NCBI GenBank assembly: GCA_963740355.1
Contig: CAVUDW010000003.1
Span: forward strand, 1,088,001 to 1,152,000
Length of the DNA: 64,000 nt
Reading direction: 5' to 3'
Source of the DNA: an uncultured Gemmatimonadaceae bacterium
GTDB taxonomy: Bacteria > Gemmatimonadota > Gemmatimonadetes > Gemmatimonadales > Gemmatimonadaceae
In this document: piece by piece, positions 1-10,605 of the stretch
Layout of the letters: each line of letters opens with the position of its first letter
How positions within the stretch are numbered: position 1 is the first letter of the stretch
Made by a program: the position numbers and the translations under genes
The notes under the pieces: model-generated
Databases searched by the model: none
The model's input: only the letters and a program-made list of their open reading frames with translations
What the model was told of the DNA's origin: nothing

Positions 1-395
1 CTCCGGAGCATGAAGTCATCCCGGCTCTGCATCGCCAGCGCCGCCCCCTTGAGCCAGAGCGCCGACACCCCGGCCCCGAGCAGGGCATCGACCGCGGCAC
101 CCGCCGCTTCAGACAACTCCGCGCTGCGGAACGCGGCCACCCGGAAGATGCCCTGCATGGCATGGTGCACGTCATCCGGCACCGAGCCCACCGGCGCCGC
201 ACGCAACAGTCGGAACACCTGCGCCTCGGCCCGTTCGAACGACGTCAGCGACACCAACGTCGGCCAGTGCACATCACTCCACGGGAGCTGTGCAGCCACT
301 GACGCACCTCCATCGGGCATCGCGGCTGCCACCAGCACGCGCGCAGAGGGCGATAGCAGCGCGGGGGCCGTGCGTGGAGTCAGTGGCGCGAGCAT
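1..395 (-). CDS. Nucleotidyltransferase family protein (NTP_transf_5-like) of the RiPP cluster, 5' part only; runs off the left edge
   Basis: Hand translation from ATG at 395, 6 nt after the permease stop: MLAPLTPRTAPALLSPSARVLVAAA...DALLGAGVSALWLKGAALAMQSRDDFMLR. The LKGxAL...R motif is typical of this family. Not in the ORF track because no stop lies in the window. Confidence 0.7.
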   Translation of the reverse strand, partial: MLAPLTPRTAPALLSPSARVLVAAAMPDGGASVAAQLPWSDVHWPTLVSLTSFERAEAQVFRLLRAAPVGSVPDDVHHAMQGIFRVAAFRSAELSEAAGAAVDALLGAGVSALWLKGAALAMQSRDDFMLR

Positions 396-401
396 CAGGC
401 G

Positions 402-1205
402 TCAGTACTGCGTGAGTGTGCCGGCACGGCGCGCGTGCTGCAGCGCCAGATGGAAGCAGGCGCCGCCAAGCACGAGGCCCGCCAGCGAAAACAGCGACAG
501 CTGCAGCAGGTCAGGCAACACCGCCGACAGCGACACATCCTTCAACAGCAACTGCCGCGCGGCGCGCAAGGCGGGCGTCATCGGCACGAAGCTCGCGAAT
601 GGCGCAAACGCGGGCGGCAGGACGGTGACCGGGAAATACACGGTGCCGAGCAATGTCGATGCGGTGAGTACCGCCTGCGGAATGAAGAGCGATGATCGCA
701 CCGCCAGCACGACGGCGCCGGCGATCAGCCCAATGCCCAGATACGCCGCGCCGAGCAGGCACATGATCACCACGAATTCCATCATGCGCGGCCATGCGAT
801 GGTGGATGTCGCCCAGATCCATGCGGTCACCAGCAACACCAGTGATCGTAACGCGACCCACCCGAAACCGTACGCAGACAAGCCACCGATCATCGACGGC
901 CACCGAATCGGGGTGGTGAGCAGCTGCTCGAGCGTGCCGGAAGTGATGTAGCTGTTGATCAACGACGGAATCGCCGACACCGCTTCGGCAATCACGAACG
1001 ACGCCACCGACCCGACGATCAGGTACGTGAAGTATTCCGACGACTCGGCCGCGATCGCCTTGGCGGCCAGCGGCTGCAGGGCACCCGCGATGAAATACAC
1101 CGGGATGACGGCGATCAGCACCGACAACAAGCTCACGAGGGTGCGCGTGCGGTACGTGACCATGCTCAGCGTGTACGCGCGCGCCACCGCAAGCAGTCTA
1201 CGCAT
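402..1205 (-). CDS. ABC-2 type transporter permease
   Basis: 267 aa, about 6 hydrophobic segments, GTLEQLLTTP and GTVYFPVTVLP motifs; overlaps the ATPase gene. Confidence 0.9.
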   Translation of the reverse strand: MRRLLAVARAYTLSMVTYRTRTLVSLLSVLIAVIPVYFIAGALQPLAAKAIAAESSEYFTYLIVGSVASFVIAEAVSAIPSLINSYITSGTLEQLLTTPIRWPSMIGGLSAYGFGWVALRSLVLLVTAWIWATSTIAWPRMMEFVVIMCLLGAAYLGIGLIAGAVVLAVRSSLFIPQAVLTASTLLGTVYFPVTVLPPAFAPFASFVPMTPALRAARQLLLKDVSLSAVLPDLLQLSLFSLAGLVLGGACFHLALQHARRAGTLTQY

Positions 1206-2223
1206 GGCGGACTCCCCCCGCGGGCATCGCGCTCACACCGACGGATTCCAGCAGATCCGCCAGCGTCAGCGCGAGCGGCGCAAACTCCGCCACGCGAACG
1301 CCAGCGCGCACCAGTGCCTCGACCACGACAGGCGCGTGCGCGGCATCCGGGAGCGTTGCCTCGAGCAGGACGAAGCCATCCAGCGGCGGCGTGATCACGT
1401 CGACGGGAAGGTGGAGTAACACGCGTGCGCGCGCTTCATGAGCGGCTTCGACACGCACACGGACCCGCGCGCCACCGACCCTGGAGGCCAGTTGCTGCAA
1501 CGAGTCGGTAGCCACCACTCGCCCTCGCACCATCAACGCAGCGCGATCACACAACTGCATTGCTTCTTCCGTGTTGTGTGTGGCCAGCACGATGGTGGCG
1601 CCGAGTTGCGTGCAGAGCACGTCCCGGATGAACCGGCGAAGCTCACGCGCCGTGATCGGATCGAGGCTGCGCGTCGGTTCATCGAGGATGAGAATCGGCG
1701 GACGTGTGACCAGCGCGCGCGCAATCAACGTCCGCTGGCGCATCCCGGATGAAAAGCTGCCCACCTGCTGACGACCCACGTGCGACAGCCCGACGAGTTC
1801 CAGCGCACTGGCGACGGCAGTGTCGCGCGCCTCGCCGCGGAGCCCGTAAAGCGAGGCGAAGAGCCGAACATTCTCGGCGGCACTGATGCGCCAGAACAAC
1901 GCCCGTTCATCCGCCGGCACAACCGCGAGGCGCGTGCGAACCGCCGCGGGATCGGCGAGTGCATCGACACCATCCACCATCACGCTGCCGCGCTCTGGAA
2001 GCAGCACCGTCGAGAGGATCTTCAGCAGCGTCGTCTTCCCCGCGCCGTTGGCGCCGACGAGCCCGAAGATTTCGCCACGCTGCACGGTGAGACTGACGGC
2101 ATCGAGCACCGCGCGTTGCTGTGTGCCAGGTGCGTGCCGAAGGCGACGGAGCAGTCCGCGGTCGGCACGGAAGAACTTCGACACATCGCGAAGCGCGATC
2201 GCCGGATCGGCACCCTCGGTCAT
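1198..2223 (-). CDS. ABC transporter ATP-binding protein
   Basis: Walker A GANGAGKT, signature FSSGM, Walker B ILILDE; ATG at 2223 overlaps the kinase stop (ATGA). Confidence 0.95.
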   Translation of the reverse strand: MTEGADPAIALRDVSKFFRADRGLLRRLRHAPGTQQRAVLDAVSLTVQRGEIFGLVGANGAGKTTLLKILSTVLLPERGSVMVDGVDALADPAAVRTRLAVVPADERALFWRISAAENVRLFASLYGLRGEARDTAVASALELVGLSHVGRQQVGSFSSGMRQRTLIARALVTRPPILILDEPTRSLDPITARELRRFIRDVLCTQLGATIVLATHNTEEAMQLCDRAALMVRGRVVATDSLQQLASRVGGARVRVRVEAAHEARARVLLHLPVDVITPPLDGFVLLEATLPDAAHAPVVVEALVRAGVRVAEFAPLALTLADLLESVGVSAMPAGGVRHA

Positions 2224-3203
2224 GCTGGCACGCTGTCGTTCGCCGGTGCGTGACCATGCCACTGCAGCAACATGTCGATCACTGCACCGAGCCGAGACAG
2301 GTCGCGTGGCACAGCAAGATCGAACACCGCGGTGGCCTGTGCGATGTCGATGCAGCGCGTGAGCGCATCACCGGCAGCATCGGCGCCAAGGAGTTCCGTG
2401 ATCTTTCCATTCGAGAGTAACGCAAGCGCTGCGGCGCGCGTTGTACGAGGCGCACGCGCGACGTCCGCATCGGGCGACACTGGCGAGAGCACGTAGACGG
2501 CAGCCAGCGGAAGTGCGTCCGTGGCCACGTCGGCAACCACGCGCACTTTCCCCCAGTCATCGACAGTGCTCGACGCAACACCGACGGCTCGTGCGGTTTC
2601 GGCGCGCAATCGAAGCGGCAGTCCAGTCGGCGTCACTGTGACGCCGTGCGCACTCTGTCGCAGCACGACGACATCGTCGGCGACGAGGGCGCATCCGGCC
2701 TGCAGGCACGCAGTGGCGAGCGTGGACTTGCCCGTGCCACGTGGAGCGACGAATGCCACAACACCATCACCCATCACAACCGCGCTGGCGTGCATGCACC
2801 AGTCGCCGTCGCGGTGCAGTGCGTACGGCAACACCACACCGATCAGGTCAAGCGCGACCGCACTGCGGTCCACTCCCGAGGGTGCGAGGTGCGCAATCCG
2901 CCGACCGTCGTTCGAAAGCGTGAAGCGCCCGGTGTCAGTGACGAGGATCTCCGCACCGCCGACGCCTGTCGCAAGCGTCACATCGATGCCGTTCGAATAG
3001 GTGTGTCGCCCGATGATGGTTGCGGCCGGGTCGTGCTCGATGGCTCCCACATCCGACGGCGTCGTACACAGCTCCCAGAACGGGAACTGCCCATCACCGG
3101 GAGCGGCGACAGGCAGGCCAGGAAGTGGGCGATCGGTGGCGAGCACTCTGCCAAACACACGAACCCGCCCCGGCGCGAGATGCGCAGCTGGAGCGGGCTG
3201 CAT
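2220..3203 (-). CDS. HPr kinase/phosphorylase-like peptide kinase (paeninodin PadeK-like)
   Basis: MHASAV...APRGTGKSTLA...LVADD motifs; start placed at the ATG 4 nt after the precursor stop. Confidence 0.85.
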   Translation of the reverse strand: MQPAPAAHLAPGRVRVFGRVLATDRPLPGLPVAAPGDGQFPFWELCTTPSDVGAIEHDPAATIIGRHTYSNGIDVTLATGVGGAEILVTDTGRFTLSNDGRRIAHLAPSGVDRSAVALDLIGVVLPYALHRDGDWCMHASAVVMGDGVVAFVAPRGTGKSTLATACLQAGCALVADDVVVLRQSAHGVTVTPTGLPLRLRAETARAVGVASSTVDDWGKVRVVADVATDALPLAAVYVLSPVSPDADVARAPRTTRAAALALLSNGKITELLGADAAGDALTRCIDIAQATAVFDLAVPRDLSRLGAVIDMLLQWHGHAPANDSVPA

Positions 3204-3207
3204 CACA

Positions 3208-3378
3208 TCAGGAACGCGTTCCGCCGCCTGGTGGCGTCGTCTCACCCGGAATGCAGTCACAGGAGGCGACGGAGCCATTGATGACATTCGAATTCAGCGC
3301 AAATGCCCCGAGGTTCAGCGACACCTGGGTCAGCTCGCGAAACGTGCCATAGCGCTCGAGGCGCGGCCGCTCGTACAT
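3208..3378 (-). CDS. Lasso-type RiPP precursor peptide, 56 aa
   Basis: MYERPRLERYGTFRELTQ-VSLNLGAFALNSNVINGSVASCDCIPGETTPPGGGTRS. YxxPxL...G...T leader; GAGAGG Shine-Dalgarno 6 nt upstream; lies between the B2 peptidase and the kinase. Confidence 0.85.
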   Translation of the reverse strand: MYERPRLERYGTFRELTQVSLNLGAFALNSNVINGSVASCDCIPGETTPPGGGTRS

Positions 3379-3471
3379 GGAATGCCTCTCAGTCATCTGG
3401 CAAAAAGTGTCGGATGCGCGCCACAGAGACAAGGGCTCTGTGGCATATCTCCACCGCTGCGACGCCCTAAG

Positions 3472-3912
3472 TCAGCGCAGCGTCACACCTTGGAGCGAGG
3501 AAAACCCTCCCCGCAGTGCTTCAGGCTCGGCAATTGGTGTGCCGTCCTGCTCCACCCAGGCGTGGGCCTCGAAGCCCGACGGACCTCGCCGGACCCCGAT
3601 GCGCACCACGGCCCTTGGCAAGCCGTGCTGGGTCACCAGTTCGCGGAGCGCGCTGGCCCGCACGAGGCAGGCCGAGTCACCGGGAAGCCAGCGGAGGGCC
3701 CGATCGACCGCCGCGCCCCAGCGCTCTGCGTGGCGGCGGTCCGCCGGCGACAGTGCCGACTCTCGTCTGGACTCAACAGACTCGGAGACATCATCGGCGG
3801 TGCGTTCAACGAGGGTTCCGACCGGGCGACCCGCCACGAGGCGGCGGGCCCGAACCACGGCCACTGCCGCCAGGCCGACATCGAATGCGGCTCGGGCCTT
3901 CCGCACCAGCAC
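3472..3912 (-). CDS. Lasso peptide biosynthesis B2 protein (transglutaminase-like leader peptidase)
   Basis: CLVRA...VRIGVRR...EAHAWVE catalytic Cys/His motifs; GTG start. Confidence 0.9.
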   Translation of the reverse strand: MLVRKARAAFDVGLAAVAVVRARRLVAGRPVGTLVERTADDVSESVESRRESALSPADRRHAERWGAAVDRALRWLPGDSACLVRASALRELVTQHGLPRAVVRIGVRRGPSGFEAHAWVEQDGTPIAEPEALRGGFSSLQGVTLR

Positions 3913-3917
3913 GCTGG

Positions 3918-4202
3918 TCAGCCCAGCGTTGCAGCGGTGTCCACGAGCAGCCCTTCGATCGACAGGTCCGCCAGCAACTCGCGGACGTGGCAGACTACGT
4001 CGGTCGCGCCTGCGTCAGGCCAGCGCTCGCGAACGGCGGCGGCCAGCGCCTCCTCGGACGACGCGCCGCTGGCCAAGGCCTGCCAGATCACGGTGCCGGT
4101 TTCATTCAGACCGAAATACACCTCGGTCAGCGGATGAAAGAGCACGCTGCCGTCGGGCAGTGTGCGCGTGACCACATCGGGGTGCGGAACGGGAAGCGAC
4201 AT
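3918..4202 (-). CDS. PqqD-family RiPP recognition element (lasso B1)
   Basis: About 94 aa: DGSVLFHPLTEVYFGLNETGTVIWQAL...VRELLADLSIEGLL; start could instead be 4226. Confidence 0.88.
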   Translation of the reverse strand: MSLPVPHPDVVTRTLPDGSVLFHPLTEVYFGLNETGTVIWQALASGASSEEALAAAVRERWPDAGATDVVCHVRELLADLSIEGLLVDTAATLG

Positions 4203-4389
4203 CGAGACGGAAAAGGGAATCGGCATCCGGAAGTGAGACGCGCGGGATGCATTCGGGAAACGCACAAAGCGCTCCATCGCGGCAGGGGGTCGCGCACTGC
4301 GACCACCGACCGCGCGCCCTGATACAGACCCCTTCACCTCACGTTCCGTTAAGCAACGAACTCAGCCGAAACAACGTGCCCGCTCTCGT

Positions 4390-5727
4390 TCAGCGTCCAG
4401 GTGCAGGAGCCGATGCAACGCCGCTGACCAGTTTCCCTTCCTTCATCACCATCCGCACACGCTCGATCGCCGCGATCTCACGCGTCGGATCGCCATCGAC
4501 GGCCACGAGGTCGGCCAACATGCCCGGTGCCACGGTGCCGATCCGGTCGCCCATGTCGAGCACCTTGGCGGCAGCAGAGGTGGCGGAGACCAGCGCCTGT
4601 GTCGGTGTGAGGCCGTACTCCACCATCAGGATGGGTTCCCGCGCATTGGTGCCGTGCGTGAACACACCGACGTCACTGCCGTTCGCAATCGTGACGCCGG
4701 CGTCGATCGCCATCTTCACGCTCGCCCGCTTGGCGGTGATGCGCGCGGGTTCCGCACCGGTGCCCTTCTTCCAGCCACCGTACTGCGAGACGGCATCTCC
4801 AGCGGCGACCGTCGGCACCAGCACGACACCACGTTCCTTCATCAGGCGAAAGACTTCCGGCGTGCCATCGTCGCCATGGTCGATGGTTTTCACGCCCGCG
4901 AGAATCGCGCGCCGCATGCCTTCCGGTGTCGTCGAGTGGGCGACGACGTGCCGCCCGCTCGACTCAGCGATTTCAACCACCAGGTTCAATTCGGCCTGCG
5001 TGAAGGCCGGGCGCGCACTGCCATTCGCGCCCCAGCGATAGTCCGCGTAGATCTTGATCCAGTCCGCACCACGGCGGATCTGGTCGCGCACCACACGCGA
5101 CAGTTCTTCCGGCCCGGCAGCCTCCTCGGCGCCTTGCGGCACATCGACTTCCGGTGCGAAGCCACCCGGTCCGTAACTGCCGCGCATCACGATGGCGCGC
5201 GTGACGACGACGAGGCGTGGCCCTTCGATGATGCCCTGCTCGACCGCCTTCTTGAGCCCCACGTCCGCGTCAGCCGCGCCTTCAGTACCGAGGTCGCGCA
5301 AGGTGGTGAATCCTGCGCGCAGTGTGCGCTGCATGCTGACGGTCGCGCGGGCGACGCGAAGTCCGAGTGGCTCCTTGAGCACCTGATCATTCCACGTCGC
5401 TTCGTTGTACGGGTGCAGCAGCACATGCGAGTGGAGGTCGATCATGCCCGGCATCAACGTCATGCCAGGCAGGTCGATGACCGTCGCATCGCTTGGTGCC
5501 TTCACGCTTGCCGGTGAACCCACCGCCGTGATGCGGCCATTCTGCACCAACACCACCACGCCGGACTGCGGAGCCTGGCCCGTGCCATCGAAGACACGCG
5601 CCGGCTTGAGCAGGTAGCTGACCGATACGGCGGCGACGGGGGCTGCCTGTGCTGCGACCAGTGACGGCACGAGTGCTGCGACTGCGGACACACATCGGAG
5701 AACACGTGCGAAGGGCATGAGCATCAT
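4390..5727 (-). CDS. Secreted amidohydrolase (Xaa-Pro dipeptidase-like metallo-dependent hydrolase)
   Basis: Signal peptide, [39 protein letters not shown]. Confidence 0.9.
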
Positions 5728-7817
5728 CGTGAGCAGAGTGAGGGGCGTGCGGCGCTCGACGCGGGCGAAGTGGCAGCGGGTGATGCCGGTGCCGCAATCG
5801 ATGATGCATCGCGCGGCCAGACGTTGTCGGATGGGTCTCGATCGGGAAAACGACAGCCCGGATCAAAGAGCACCTGCGTGATGCGACGATTGCCGAAGTT
5901 GAGCACTGCGTCGAAGGTGCGCTTGCCACCGAACCAGACATCGACCGGCCAGGTGACGATGGCCGTCACGCTGTCCTGCATGACGGCGTTCGGCATCGGC
6001 TTGATCGCTGGGCCGGTGGCATCGAATCGCACGCGCAGCACGACCGGTGATGGCATCTGTCCATCCTGTCGCACAGTGACGGTGGTGCGCGATCCTTTCA
6101 CTGCCAGGTTCGCGATCGAACCGTCGACACGTTCGGTGGTGAAGAGCCAGGAATACCAGAACCACCCGAGATCACGATTGAGGGCCTTGTTCATGAAGAA
6201 CATGTAGTCCCACGGCGACGGATGCTTGAACATCCAGGCGGTCGCCCATTCACGCTGCGCGCGCCGTACTGCCGAATCGCCGACCACACCACCGAGCATC
6301 GACAGCATCAACGGCGTCTTGCCATAGGTGGTGAAGCTGTACGAGGGGCCGGCGTAGTTCGCGTTCCACATCATTGGCGGCTCGCTCTCACTGCCGCTGG
6401 TGAGGCCGTACGACTGTCCCAGGCGATCGAGATTCGGCGACTGCTTCGTGTTGTCGGCCGCCGAGAGGATGTTCATGTACTGGTTGAATCCTTCATCCAT
6501 CCAGCCGTACCAGGTCTCGTTGTTGCTCACCACCATCGGCCACCACTGATGCCCGGTTTCGTGATCGGCGGCGCCCTGATTGGAATTGATCACCATCGGG
6601 TATTCCATGCCGGCACTGGGCCCGTCCTGCAGCGTCAGTTGCGGGAACTGGTACGGGAACCAGAGTGCAGAGTAGAACTCGAGCGCATGGCGCGTGATGC
6701 GACCCGCATTGGCGAACAGGGCTTCCCGTCCCGGCAGGTAGACCATGTGCACCGGCACCGGACCCTTGCCAGGTATGGTGGCGCGTGTTGCCTGCCAGAC
6801 GAACTTCTTCGCCGTGGCCCATGCAAAGTCATTGACGTTGTCGGCCACGAGGTGCCACACCAGTCGATCACCAATCGCCGTGGCCTGCCCCGGGCCAATT
6901 TCAGTCGGACCGACGATGGTGACGATGCTGTCGCTCTCCAGCACGCGCGCGAGACTGGCACGTGCAGCGGCCGTAAGCACCTGATCCGGATTCTGCAGCA
7001 CGCCGGTGCCGCTGACGATCCAGCCTCCGGGCACATCGATCTTCACATCGAAGCGGCCGAAGTTGTTGTAGAACTCTGACGGGCCCAGATACAGCTCCGG
7101 ATCCCAGCCACGCAGGTCGTCATAGACGGCGATGCGCGGGAACCACTGTGTGGGCTGAAAGAGTGAATCAGCCCAGCGTTGTGTCATGCGATGGCCAGAC
7201 CCTGGCCCGCCCGGCAGCGCGTGGTTCCACTCGATGTCGATGGTGGCACTGCCGTTCGGTGCAATGGCGGATGCGAGGAAGAGTCGCGCGAGCGTGGACT
7301 TCAGGTTCACCACGGCGGCTTCGGTGGCGACGGCGCCGCGTGAGGGCGGCGGCGCGTCGAACCGCACCGGCTTGCCATTGACGCGAATGGCCGTGACCAC
7401 CATGCCGTCGGTCAGCTGCGCCGGCACCCACGGCAATGCGCGTGGATTGGTCCCGATGAAATGGTTGGCATCCAGCCGCAGTGCGATCTGCGAGAGCGAG
7501 TCGGGGCTGGCGTTGTGAAGCGTGATCGTCTCGCGCCCACTCAGACGCTGGGCGGGCACATCGAGTCGCGCCTGGATGACATAGTCGGTGCGCAGTTGCC
7601 AGTATTTCGCGCCGGGCTTGCCGGTGGAGTCGCGGGTCCCGGCACGAAACGCGGCGCGGATCGCGTCGGTCATCGGGATGTCGCGACGGATGGCGCGGTC
7701 GGGCCAGGCTGACGGAGCGGACTGGGCAAGCGCTGTGGACGCTGCCAATACGAGGATGGCGGGGAGTCGAAGCACGGGCGAACAGGCCCGGATGTGGCGT
7801 ACGATTTGGCAAGGCAT
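5724..7817 (-). CDS. M1 family zinc metallopeptidase, secreted
   Basis: AGMEYP and HETGH-X18-E zinc motif; signal peptide; start uncertain. Confidence 0.88.
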
Positions 7818-7863
7818 GCGGAATCGTCGACCACAACGACCGCAGGCGCAAGAGCGGCGGGTA

Positions 7864-9282
7864 CTATTCGCCGAGCGCGAGCACCGACGCCACGGCGGCG
7901 AGCGTGCGCCGCACATCCTCCGCATTCGTGCGCCAGTTCACGACGCTGACACGCATGGCCCGCTGTCCCTGCCACGTGGTGCCGCTGAAAAAGGCCTCGC
8001 CGGTGGCATTCACGCCCTCGATCACGGCATCGGTACGCCGGTCGTGATCGGCGCTCGTTGCCCCCAGGCGCGGGTCGAGGAACCGCACCAGACCCTGATT
8101 CAGGTTCGGTTCCCAGAGCACCTCGGCGCCTGGCAACGCGCCGATGCCGGTGACGATGGAGTGGCAGTGTGCACAGTCGCGATCGATCAGGTCGGCGAGG
8201 CCGTTGCGGCCCATTTCCCGAAGGGCCGCAAAGACGGCGAACCCACGCGCACGACGTGACCACTCCGGATTCCAGTCGATCTGGCTCCGTACATCGGTGT
8301 TCTCGGAGATGTACGAGGCCGAGAGTGTCATGGAAGCGCGATGCGCCTCGCGGTCACGCACGACGGCAAAGCCGCAGTCGTACGGTACGTTGAGCCACTT
8401 GTGTGCATCGGTGGCCCAGCTGTCCGCGAGCTCGACGCCGCGCAGCAGTTCTCGCTTGGTCGCGCTGGCACGCGCCATCAGGCCGAACGCACCGTCGATG
8501 TGCACCCAGGCGCCAGCAGCATGCGCGATCGGGATGAGCGTCGCAAAATCATCGATGGCACCGATGTTGAGGTCCGCGGCATCGAGCACCACGATCGTCG
8601 GTCCAGCGTGTGCGGCCAGCGCTGCGGCGAGCGTCCTGGCTTCGACGACGCCTATGTGGTTGGTGGGCAGCGCCACCAACGCATTGCTGCCGATACCGAG
8701 GAAGCGAATCGCGCGATCGATCGAGCCGTGGCGATGTTCACTGGTCAGGACACGAATCGCTGGCGCACCAAACAATCCATCGCCGTGCACATCCCAGCCC
8801 GCGCGTGAAAGGACTGCATGACGGGCGGCGGCAAGCGCGGTGAAATGCGCCAGTTGGCAGCCAGTGGTGAACGCGAATGATGCATCGCGCGGCAGGTCGA
8901 GCACGTCGAGCAACCATGCGCCCGCTACTTCCTCGACGACGGCCGCCGCCGGCGCCGTGGAATAGATGGCGGCATTCTGATCCCACGCGCACGTCAACCA
9001 ATCCGCCGCCAGCGCCGATGGCAGCGCCCCGCCGATGACCCAGGCGAAAAATCGTCCGCTGACCGCGGCATGCAATCCGCCATCGGTCATCGCGACGAGG
9101 TCGTCGATCACCTGCTCCGCGCTGACGCCATCCGCTTCGAGTGCGATGTGCATCCTGCGCCGCAACTCGGCGGCGGAAGCGGTGGCGCCGACCGAGCGGG
9201 TATCGATGCCGTCGAGCCACGCGAGCGCAGCAGCGTGCGCGCGCTCGAGGGCCGCGTGTGCGGTGGGGTGGGGCGTGGTCAT
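7864..9282 (-). CDS. Group II pyridoxal-phosphate-dependent decarboxylase (aromatic amino acid/glutamate decarboxylase family)
   Basis: WVHIDGAFG, ADSWATDAHKWLNVPYDCG (PLP lysine), EWSRRARG. Confidence 0.92.
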   Translation of the reverse strand: MTTPHPTAHAALERAHAAALAWLDGIDTRSVGATASAAELRRRMHIALEADGVSAEQVIDDLVAMTDGGLHAAVSGRFFAWVIGGALPSALAADWLTCAWDQNAAIYSTAPAAAVVEEVAGAWLLDVLDLPRDASFAFTTGCQLAHFTALAAARHAVLSRAGWDVHGDGLFGAPAIRVLTSEHRHGSIDRAIRFLGIGSNALVALPTNHIGVVEARTLAAALAAHAGPTIVVLDAADLNIGAIDDFATLIPIAHAAGAWVHIDGAFGLMARASATKRELLRGVELADSWATDAHKWLNVPYDCGFAVVRDREAHRASMTLSASYISENTDVRSQIDWNPEWSRRARGFAVFAALREMGRNGLADLIDRDCAHCHSIVTGIGALPGAEVLWEPNLNQGLVRFLDPRLGATSADHDRRTDAVIEGVNATGEAFFSGTTWQGQRAMRVSVVNWRTNAEDVRRTLAAVASVLALGE

Positions 9283-9348
9283 GGTGCGGGCGTGAACGGA
9301 GGCACGGGAGGCAAATCGGCCGAGAGGGTGCGCGGCATTTTCGCAGGG

Positions 9349-9534
9349 TAACGTATTGGTGCGTCTGGAGTTAGCACGCGATCAAGGGGTCGGAGATCTT
9401 GGTCGATCAAGGGGTCAGAGATCTTGGTCGGCCGATTGCAGGCGTAAGCGGTTGCTGCATATGGAGTTAGCATCTGATCAAGATCTCCGACCCCTTGGTC
9501 TTCCGACGCGTTGATCAGGTCCGACCCGTGGATC
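9349..9534. repeat. Modular intergenic repeat, locus 1
   Basis: Arms GATCAAGGGGTC(G/A)GAGATCTTGGTC at 9380-9404 and 9405-9429, inverted arm at 9476-9500; 25-bp TAA..TTA boxes at 9349-9373 and 9445-9469; degenerate arms to 9534. Confidence 0.9.
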
Positions 9535-9587
9535 TTCCTGCCGCCGTCTGTCGCCGGCCATGGTTCACGTCCCTGCGCTTGTCCAGC

Positions 9588-9623
9588 AAAACCAAAACGC
9601 CCCCCGGATAACCGGGAGGCGTT
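9588..9623 (-). terminator. Intrinsic terminator after rpsG
   Basis: Minus strand AACGCCTCCCGG-TTAT-CCGGGGGGCGTT followed by TTGGTTTT. Confidence 0.8.
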
Positions 9624-9646
9624 CTGTACTGCGACGGAATCGACGA

Positions 9647-10113
9647 CTACCAGCGGTAGTGCGCGAAGGCCTTGTTGGCCTCGGCCATGCGGTGCGTGTC
9701 TTCCTTCTTCTTGATCGCGTTGCCTTCGCCCTTGCTGGCGGCGATGACTTCCGCAGCCAGGCGCTCCGGCATCGACTTCTCGTTGCGATCGCGCGAATAG
9801 CTGATCAACCAACGCATCGCGAGCGCCGTGCGGCGATCGGGACGGACTTCGACCGGCACCTGATACGTGGCACCGCCGACGCGGCGGCTCTTCACTTCCA
9901 CGACCGGCTTCAGGTTCGTCAGGGCCTGCTTGAAGATGTTCACGCCCGGCTGGCTGGTGCGTGCTTCCACCAGGTCCATCGCGGCGTAGAAGATCTTCTC
10001 TGACGTGGCCTTGCGACCCTGCAGCATCAGGTTGTTGATGAACTTGCTGACAGTCTGGCTGTCGTAGCGGGCATCAGGCAGGATGATGCGCTTTACGGAC
10101 TTTTTGCGGCGGC

Positions 10114-10117
<4 letters not shown>
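9647..10117 (-). CDS. rpsG: 30S ribosomal protein S7
   Basis: [34 protein letters not shown] start overlaps the rpsL stop. Confidence 0.99.
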
Positions 10118-10530
<413 letters not shown>

Positions 10531-10605
10531 TGCCTCTGAGTGTTCGGACCCCGACATCTACGTGGATCGCTCCCCGGGGCGGGGGCGGCACGGAACAGAC
10601 CTGCA

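Follow-up and report, generated by a model that had tools for sequence, protein, structure and literature searches.

What does a lasso peptide gene cluster make when the enzyme that closes the lasso ring is not there? This question is raised by a 64,000-nucleotide stretch of DNA from an uncultured Gemmatimonadaceae bacterium (assembly GCA_963740355.1, contig CAVUDW010000003.1; G000:C3:1088001-1152000, where G000 is the source genome, 94.5% complete in 5 contigs), the whole of which is called the window here. Its first 4,202 positions carry a cluster for a peptide made on ribosomes and modified after translation (RiPP) with a lasso-type leader and leader peptidase, together with genes for a kinase, a nucleotidyltransferase and an ATP-binding cassette (ABC) exporter, but without a macrolactam cyclase. 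As read from the genes, the product is probably a linear peptide that is cleaved by the peptidase, phosphorylated on serine, further decorated and exported. The features of the cluster are as follows.

3918..4202, minus strand: B1, a stand-alone RiPP recognition element (RRE) with the PqqD fold (PF05402, E 1.8e-11, above cut-off)
3472..3912, minus strand: B2, a lasso-type cysteine leader peptidase (NF033537, 68 bits against a cut-off of 33; PF13471 above cut-off)
3379..3471, minus strand: the B2-precursor gap, 93 nt, site of a cyclase gene of ~1.9 kb in relatives
3208..3378, minus strand: precursor A, 56 aa (leader profile NF033521, 27 bits against a cut-off of 19)
2220..3203, minus strand: HprK-like peptide kinase (PF07475, E 6e-4, and TIGR04352, both weak and below cut-off)
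1198..2223, minus strand: ABC ATPase of an ABC-2 exporter (PF00005, E 2e-32; best NCBIfam match DrrA-like, below cut-off)
402..1205, minus strand: ABC-2 permease (PF01061, E 1e-8, above cut-off)
1..395, minus strand: 5' part of an NTP_transf_5 nucleotidyltransferase gene (PF14907, E 2.5e-35, above cut-off)

As originally predicted, all seven genes are present and co-oriented in the order from B1 to the nucleotidyltransferase, and they overlap or lie at most 10 bases apart, the 93-nt gap being the exception. The nucleotidyltransferase gene ends 825 bases beyond the left edge of the window and as a whole (G000:C3:1087175-1088395) encodes 406 aa. The cluster lies inside the str operon, between rpsG (window 9647-10117) and fusA, the next gene after the transferase; tuf and the S10/spc ribosomal protein genes also lie left of the edge. 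B2, the PqqD protein and a leader of this type occur once each in the genome, all within this cluster, and the Cys and the AHAWV motif of B2 are kept in at least 90% of 17 copies from the lineage defined below.

For comparison, 61 regions around B2 or kinase matches were fetched, best first and hence non-randomly, from 165 genomes with a kinase match, and one metagenome locus was added. Among the 56 loci with a kinase, 36 carry a cyclase, 2 are truncated, and 18 form the present lineage, namely this genome, 14 other genomes of its genus, G436 from a sister genus, one contig named Gemmatimonadaceae and one metagenome contig (the metagenome scan gave 1 lineage locus among at least 26 loci). In all 18, B2 is followed by a gap of ~92-100 nt and then by the precursor gene. 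Relatives in the family carry the same operon with a cyclase gene in that place: 20/36 cyclase-bearing loci are ordered B1-B2-C-(A)-K-ABC-permease-NT, where C is the cyclase, A the precursor, K the kinase and NT the nucleotidyltransferase, and 11/36 hold both rpsG and fusA. These clusters (L055, L056, L059, L068, L069, L071, L101, L111 and others) share homologous genes, a near-identical leader, often the same rpsG-fusA site and mostly RS, TS or SR ends with the cluster in the window, and differ from it by a ~650-aa asparagine-synthetase-like gene without the MCG start between B2 and A and by mostly having Gly2 and Asp8 in the core.

The original prediction had seen no cyclase in the window and had allowed for one just beyond its left edge. 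There, the contig carries fusA and tuf instead, and no N occurs in C3:1,080,000-1,100,000. A search with PF00733 gave no cyclase-type protein in the genome: its five full-length PF00733 genes all start with MCG and the two scanned pass TIGR01536, which identifies them by sequence as ordinary glutamine amidotransferases, and the remaining weak matches are, by motif, presumably NAD synthetase, QueC and MnmA. The cut-off of NF033535 was discarded as a cyclase test because the cyclases of the relatives also fall below it (166-232 bits, compared with 240-270 bits for ordinary AsnB), and so the MCG start, TIGR01536 and a family profile were used instead. With a profile of 10 family cyclases, the genome's PF00733 genes reached at most 225 bits, compared with 450-808 bits for full-length family cyclases outside the seed. 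With a 9-row cyclase alignment, the best match in the 15 genus genomes and G436 had 273 bits, compared with 405-882 bits in 6 control genomes, several of which contain seed rows. The lineage matches above ~210 bits outside this genome (12 regions opened) all start with MCG, whereas 0/39 cluster cyclases do, and two lineage genomes gave no AsnB-like match at E 1e-20. One AsnB-type amidotransferase gene of the genome, at G000:C2:624353-626319, lies in two overlapping frames (498 and 284 aa), reflecting a frameshift or an assembly error.

The precursor also differs from those of cyclase-bearing relatives. It consists of an 18-aa leader with Tyr-17, Pro-14, Leu-12 and Thr-2 and a predicted 38-aa core, VSLNLGAFALNSNVINGSVASCDCIPGETTPPGGGTRS. 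The leader is that of a lasso precursor, with YxxPxL and Thr at -2 invariant in 18/18 lineage precursors. In the core, S2, G6, V14, G17, A20, C22, D23, C24, P26 and the terminal RS are likewise invariant, so that the C-terminal Ser noted originally is confirmed throughout the lineage. As a comparison set, a pattern search yielded 38 precursors from 31 of the cyclase-bearing loci, while in several loci it missed the precursor. With the cut taken after Thr-Gln in both groups, an Asp or Glu at core position 7-9, the place of the ring acceptor, was found in 0/18 lineage precursors compared with 32/38 of this set, and the first acidic core residue is at position 23 in 16/18. Conversely, Ser2 (18/18 and 1/38) and Cys-Asp-Cys (18/18 and 0/38) set the lineage apart, whereas a terminal Ser is shared with 26/38 cyclase-bearing precursors, and 34/38 have a Ser within the last two positions. 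The first 21 core residues have a mean hydropathy of +0.86 and 0.2 charged residues in the lineage, compared with -0.24 and 3.0 in the cyclase-bearing set. This precursor type was found in 15/15 genus genomes and G436 but in 0/385 other family genomes searched, and it gave three full-length matches among 1.84 billion representatives; its fold model is of low confidence (predicted local distance difference test, pLDDT, 56). Because no cyclase was found past the edge, in this genome or among 15 relatives, and positions 7-9 offer no acceptor, the earlier, conditional suggestion of a linear product is supported.

How did the cyclase disappear? In a tree of concatenated B2, kinase and ABC ATPase sequences (37 rows, unrooted, with a long-branch warning on a neighbour), the 15 lineage rows form one branch with a Shimodaira-Hasegawa-like approximate likelihood ratio (SH-aLRT) support of 100. 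In an elongation factor G (EF-G) tree with four other families as the root, the lineage forms a single clade (100/99) within the family, and earlier branches (100/98) lead to genomes whose cyclase-bearing cluster occupies the same site (L071, L111). We relied on these two trees because a quick kinase-only tree gave a support of 24 for joining G436 to the genus; the transferase of G436 also adjoins fusA. Since the EF-G tree nests the lineage among cyclase-bearing relatives, the data point to a single loss of the macrolactam cyclase in the ancestor of one Gemmatimonadaceae genus and its sister genus. The Ser and Asp counts of the lineage therefore describe one event rather than 18.

The system left after this loss is maintained. 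All cluster genes are open in the loci covering them, and all are under purifying selection, as judged from pairwise ratios of nonsynonymous to synonymous substitution rates (dN/dS) over 15-17 loci, with G436 left out and dS near 1. Within the precursor the ratio is 0.03 in the leader, 0.08 in the core as far as the CDC-x-P motif and 0.48 in the tail; it is 0.14 for B1 (15 loci), 0.26 for B2, 0.27 for the kinase, 0.14 for the ABC ATPase, 0.17 for the permease and 0.29 for the nucleotidyltransferase.

To which known systems does the cluster belong? The cluster has the leader, B1 and B2 of a lasso peptide cluster, and it stands outside that class by two features, the cyclase and the acceptor at 7-9. 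It works like the clusters for linear polyphosphorylated peptides (LPPs; lppA-K-B-S-D-N), which the paper describing them restricts to Bacillota (PMC13381572, 2026), and it stands outside that class by its peptidase and exporter; the main text of that paper does not mention Gemmatimonadota. Both have a stand-alone RRE, a kinase of the HprK-like type, an NTP transferase, an exporter and a YxxP leader, and both lack a cyclase. Ser2 is in register with the Ser of the LPP consensus YxxPxVLxHQxIxFETxxS (Y1, P4, T16, S19); by eye, Tyr, Pro, Thr and Ser match in register, whereas the HQ-x-I-x-FE part differs. The LPP peptidase is a SipW-like signal peptidase I, in place of which a lasso B2 is found here (SipW was sought among the seven cluster genes), and the LPP exporter is MsbA-like, unlike the two-gene ABC-2 exporter with its separate ATPase and PF01061 permease. 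Furthermore, LPP precursors are cut directly after Thr and have variable cores, whereas the cut here is predicted after Thr-2/Gln-1 and the cores are highly conserved. LPP clusters lie in a capsule locus of Bacillota, in contrast to the str operon of Gemmatimonadota, and, unlike for LPPs, descent from cyclase-bearing sister clusters is traceable here.

Among lasso peptides, pseudomycoidin (psmC-A-K-B1-B2-N-D) and paeninodin come closest in tailoring: B1, B2, a kinase with the His-Lys-Asp-Asp motif, a C-terminal Ser and an ABC exporter are shared, and the psm cluster also has an NTP_transf_5 enzyme with D-x-D (PMC6993621). The present locus differs in having neither a cyclase nor an acceptor at 7-9. 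The Bsf cluster of Bradymonas sediminis (PMC10368454) resembles it in its Gram-negative host, in A, B1, B2, kinase, nucleotidyltransferase and ABC transporter, in YxxPxL at -17 to -12 and in having ribosomal protein genes as a border, but has a cyclase, Gly1-Asp8 and Ile-2, where the present cluster has Thr-2, a terminal Ser and no cyclase; the Bsf kinase targets a Ser where the core begins. PMC7470986 and PMC10036551 mention cyclase-free RREs and further RRE-peptidase classes, but this cassette does not appear in the excerpts cited. Partial coverage of the literature by titles and abstract openings gave no description of this cluster or of a B2-dependent, cyclase-free kinase/nucleotidyltransferase cassette, and the supplements of PMC13381572 and PMC7470986 may tabulate such clusters.

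What, then, would the pathway be? Gene content, the missing cyclase, the missing ring acceptor, the intact catalytic motifs and selection were computed directly; the steps are modelled on characterised relatives. The YxxPxL leader would be bound by B1, and the kinase would phosphorylate a core Ser on the uncut precursor, as kinases of this kind act on the linear precursor (PMC9266682). The nucleotidyltransferase would then cap the phosphate, B2 would free the 38-aa core by cleavage after Thr-Gln, and the ABC-2 pair would export it. A linear end point has a precedent in the psm cluster without PsmC, which gave linear peptide only (PMC6993621). Such a product would be amphipathic, with an uncharged hydrophobic N-terminus of 21 residues, a Cys-Asp-Cys motif that could form a disulfide or bind a metal, a linker of Pro and Gly, and the phospho-sugar at its end.

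The kinase has His138, Lys159, Asp176 and Asp177, which are invariant in 41 close homologues, matching the His-Lys-Asp-Asp motif of lasso kinases (PMC9266682), and it is present in 14/14 other genus genomes; a predicted kinase-precursor complex scored 0.22, short of the mark of 0.32. Which serine would it modify? PadeK, ThcoK and PsmK modify a C-terminal Ser, whereas BsfK, helped by B1 (PMC10368454), and LppK (PMC13381572) modify Ser3 of the core. The original prediction took the C-terminal Ser as the site; its invariance stands, but it is now one of two invariant candidates, the other being Ser2. Ser38 is somewhat favoured, at slightly better than even, because a Ser in the last two positions is common in the family and the kinase was inherited. 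Ser2 is new in the lineage and is placed, relative to the leader Tyr, just as the LPP site is, which makes it a serious though less likely second candidate, and phosphorylation at both would be less likely still.

In the nucleotidyltransferase, neither the KG motif nor the metal-binding D-x-D motif (D122 and D124 of alignment A4) varies among 39 homologues; together with the kinase and the Ser-ending precursor, it gives the cluster the gene features of tailoring of the paeninodin/pseudomycoidin type. In pseudomycoidin, the addition of one or two hexoses to the phosphate depends on PsmN and on its D-x-D (PMC6993621). By this analogy the cap is rather more likely a hexose than not, or else a nucleoside monophosphate (NMP) or another activated phosphate compound. 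A structure model of the transferase (pLDDT 88.7) matches MenT1, ANT(2'')-Ia and LnuA (Z 13.6-15.3, root-mean-square deviation 3.2-3.6, 150-177 residues) and, more weakly, FKRP (Z 8.6), while Foldseek with this model gave no match at E 0.001. The donor cannot be told from the modelled fold, and transfer from a non-nucleotide donor is possible for a RiPP-linked transferase (PMC13622209).

Several points weigh against this pathway, which is read from genes. Completeness of the genomes ranges over 74-100%, so that any single absence of a cyclase is weak, and the overall absence rests on 16 genomes which are related and not independent. The acceptor rule is not absolute, as 6/38 cyclase-bearing precursors also have no Asp or Glu at 7-9. 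The fold search points to NMP transferases more than to sugar-phosphate ones, the hexose seen with PsmN may stem from a host enzyme (PMC6993621), and LppN was inactive in a heterologous test (PMC13381572), the latter two making the second modification uncertain. Finally, core residues 16-23 (NGSVASCD), with Gly17 and Asp23 invariant, resemble the ring motif of the family, xGxxxxCD, shifted downstream, and another cut could yield a ring-competent core, with an acceptor at 7-9 only if the cut falls before Asn16.

The shifted motif leads to the alternative that survives best, an unlikely one nonetheless, in which core residues 1-15 would be an extended leader and a cut after Val14-x15, by B2 or in a later trim, would free a 23-mer beginning at Asn16, with Asp at position 8, that either stays linear or closes its ring with no canonical cyclase. 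In 18/18 precursors the best score of a matrix built from 24 family ring starts falls at core 16 (14 in the sister genus), Gly17, Cys22, Asp23 and Val14 do not vary, the indel between the two genera precedes the motif, the Bsf subfamily tolerates Val/Ile at -2 (PMC10368454), and the cyclase-bearing loci L101, L104 and L109 have precursors with N-terminal extensions before a GKxxxxxD-like motif. However, the matrix gives modest scores (1.7-5.5 bits, with p from shuffles 0.02-0.27 and below 0.05 in 4/18, the rows not being independent), the register from Tyr-17 to Thr-2 is invariant with residues 1-15 under strong selection, and ring closure in pseudomycoidin needed its cyclase (PMC6993621). On the preferred, linear reading, the simplest history is that an N-terminal extension grew until ring closure became impossible and the cyclase dispensable; if so, the invariance of Gly17 and Asp23 would be owed to a new role of the CDC region.

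A second alternative, also improbable, is that the peptide is phosphorylated only, the nucleotidyltransferase acting off the peptide or needing a partner from outside the cluster, and that a (poly)phosphopeptide resembling LPP intermediates is exported. It draws on the lppN deletion, which changed nothing in B. subtilis (PMC13381572), on an operon with no glycosyltransferase or sugar-nucleotide gene, and on 10/36 cyclase-bearing loci with no nucleotidyltransferase in the stretch fetched, some of them truncated. The gene is nevertheless kept in 15/18 lineage loci, and contig ends explain the others: L115 ends after the kinase, and L086 and L088 end before the transferase, which their genomes hold next to fusA on another contig (L087, L160). 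Its D-x-D, invariant here, is what PsmN needs for hexose addition (PMC6993621).

It is highly improbable that, once B2 has removed the 15-residue hydrophobic insert as extended leader, the motif at core 16-23 is closed without a lasso cyclase, by the nucleotidyltransferase activating the Asp or by B2 as a ligase; a lasso-like or branched-cyclic peptide would then arise by a route that needs no cyclase. More improbable still is an ordinary lasso peptide cyclised in trans by an enzyme from elsewhere in the genome or from its unassembled part: its basis is a genome of 94.5% completeness, in 5 contigs, with five AsnB-fold genes, yet all five start with MCG, 0/16 genomes gave a cyclase-type match, and the core has no acceptor at 7-9. 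The least credible reading is a relic decaying after the loss of its class-defining enzyme, for although dN/dS of kinase, B2 and nucleotidyltransferase (0.26-0.29) is about twice that of fusA or the amidohydrolase (0.13), the genes are open, the kinase is found in every other genus genome, catalytic residues are kept, and the precursor has 0.03 and 0.08 at dS near 1.

A linear, decorated peptide thus remains the preferred reading. Its role, as a tentative guess, would be at the cell surface or in a matrix; signalling or antimicrobial action is less favoured. The guess follows from the hydrophobic rod, the CxC and the flexible phospho-sugar tail of the predicted product and from the LPP and paeninodin loci, which lie in capsule regions (PMC13381572).

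The surroundings of the cluster have features of their own. Between rpsG and B1, window 4390-7925 (minus strand) encodes an Xaa-Pro-dipeptidase-like amidohydrolase (PF01979) and an M1 peptidase (PF01433), syntenic in 13/18 and 12/18 lineage loci, respectively, and in 0/36 cyclase-bearing loci. Close homologues occur in 118/150 (amidohydrolase) and 60/150 (M1 peptidase) family genomes, at other sites where these could be compared, and both proteins look secreted, with signal peptides judged by eye. We therefore left both out as dedicated cluster parts. The original description of the amidohydrolase as unrelated is right in that it is probably no dedicated part, but it accompanies the cluster across the genus; the M1 enzyme may trim the peptide. 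In this genome, a pyridoxal-dependent decarboxylase gene (PF00282; window 7864-9282, minus strand) lies between rpsG and the M1 peptidase gene, whereas rpsG is within a few hundred bases of the M1 gene in most genus loci. The B2-precursor gap has a conserved promoter-like element at about 3402-3433, resembling TTG(T/C)C-N16-GACAC in most genus copies and reading TTGCGA-N16-TATACT in the sister genus, which may be a promoter for an extra precursor transcript; a scan for the sigma-70 consensus gave no site within the cluster, this gap included. Another promoter-like site, TTGACT/ACTAAT, was seen by eye in the gap between the nucleotidyltransferase gene and fusA. Interruption of the str operon between rpsG and fusA by a RiPP cluster is found in many Gemmatimonadaceae (window 1-10557 and G000:C3:1084769-1098557, as well as L055, L063, L070, L071, L099, L101, L104, L109, L111, L113 and L114), while rpsG abuts fusA in the four outgroup families looked at.

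Related precursors and clusters vary further. A 512-base contig, P0113, carries a more divergent precursor of the same type (Ser2, SCDC-LP and an RS end), which may mark a third lineage. In precursors beside a cyclase at five loci (L070:12215-12358, L099:8639-8803, L101:7947-8102, L104:10116-10274 and L109:10183-10347), 3-12 additional residues separate the Thr-2 site from a GKxxxxxD-like ring motif, which suggests a shifted cut, trimming or larger rings. The precursor at L092:7453-7563, whose core is rich in Trp and Arg and free of acidic residues, stands beside a second, ordinary lasso precursor. L089, L091, L094, L095, L097 and L102 are ordered B1-C-A-K-ABC-permease with no B2 or nucleotidyltransferase gene in the stretch fetched, which is either the opposite reduction or a B2 located elsewhere. 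L072:9540-11201 holds a unit of three genes, B1-B2-NTP_transf_5, near which neither a kinase nor a cyclase nor a recognised precursor lies.

In summary, the chemistry proposed here has a precedent in the LPPs, and what is new is the traceable single loss of a class-defining enzyme with the parent clusters at hand. In this lineage the class-defining lasso enzyme has been knocked out naturally, with the parent state persisting in sister genera at the same chromosomal site, and the locus shows one route from a lasso pathway to a linear phosphopeptide pathway, one that was beyond the reach of the LPP paper. What NTP_transf_5 enzymes transfer could be tested cleanly with such pairs of clusters, one having the cyclase and the other not, since their enzymes are small and soluble and their one substrate is short. 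The hexose of pseudomycoidin has been proposed as a lock for the threaded fold (PMC6993621), a role it cannot serve on a ringless product; the kinase and the nucleotidyltransferase, both under selection without a ring, argue that the phospho-sugar has a function of its own, more than that of a knot lock. Its presence in 15/15 genus genomes inside the rpsG-fusA interval suggests that the peptide has a routine physiological role in these bacteria rather than that of a patchy weapon.

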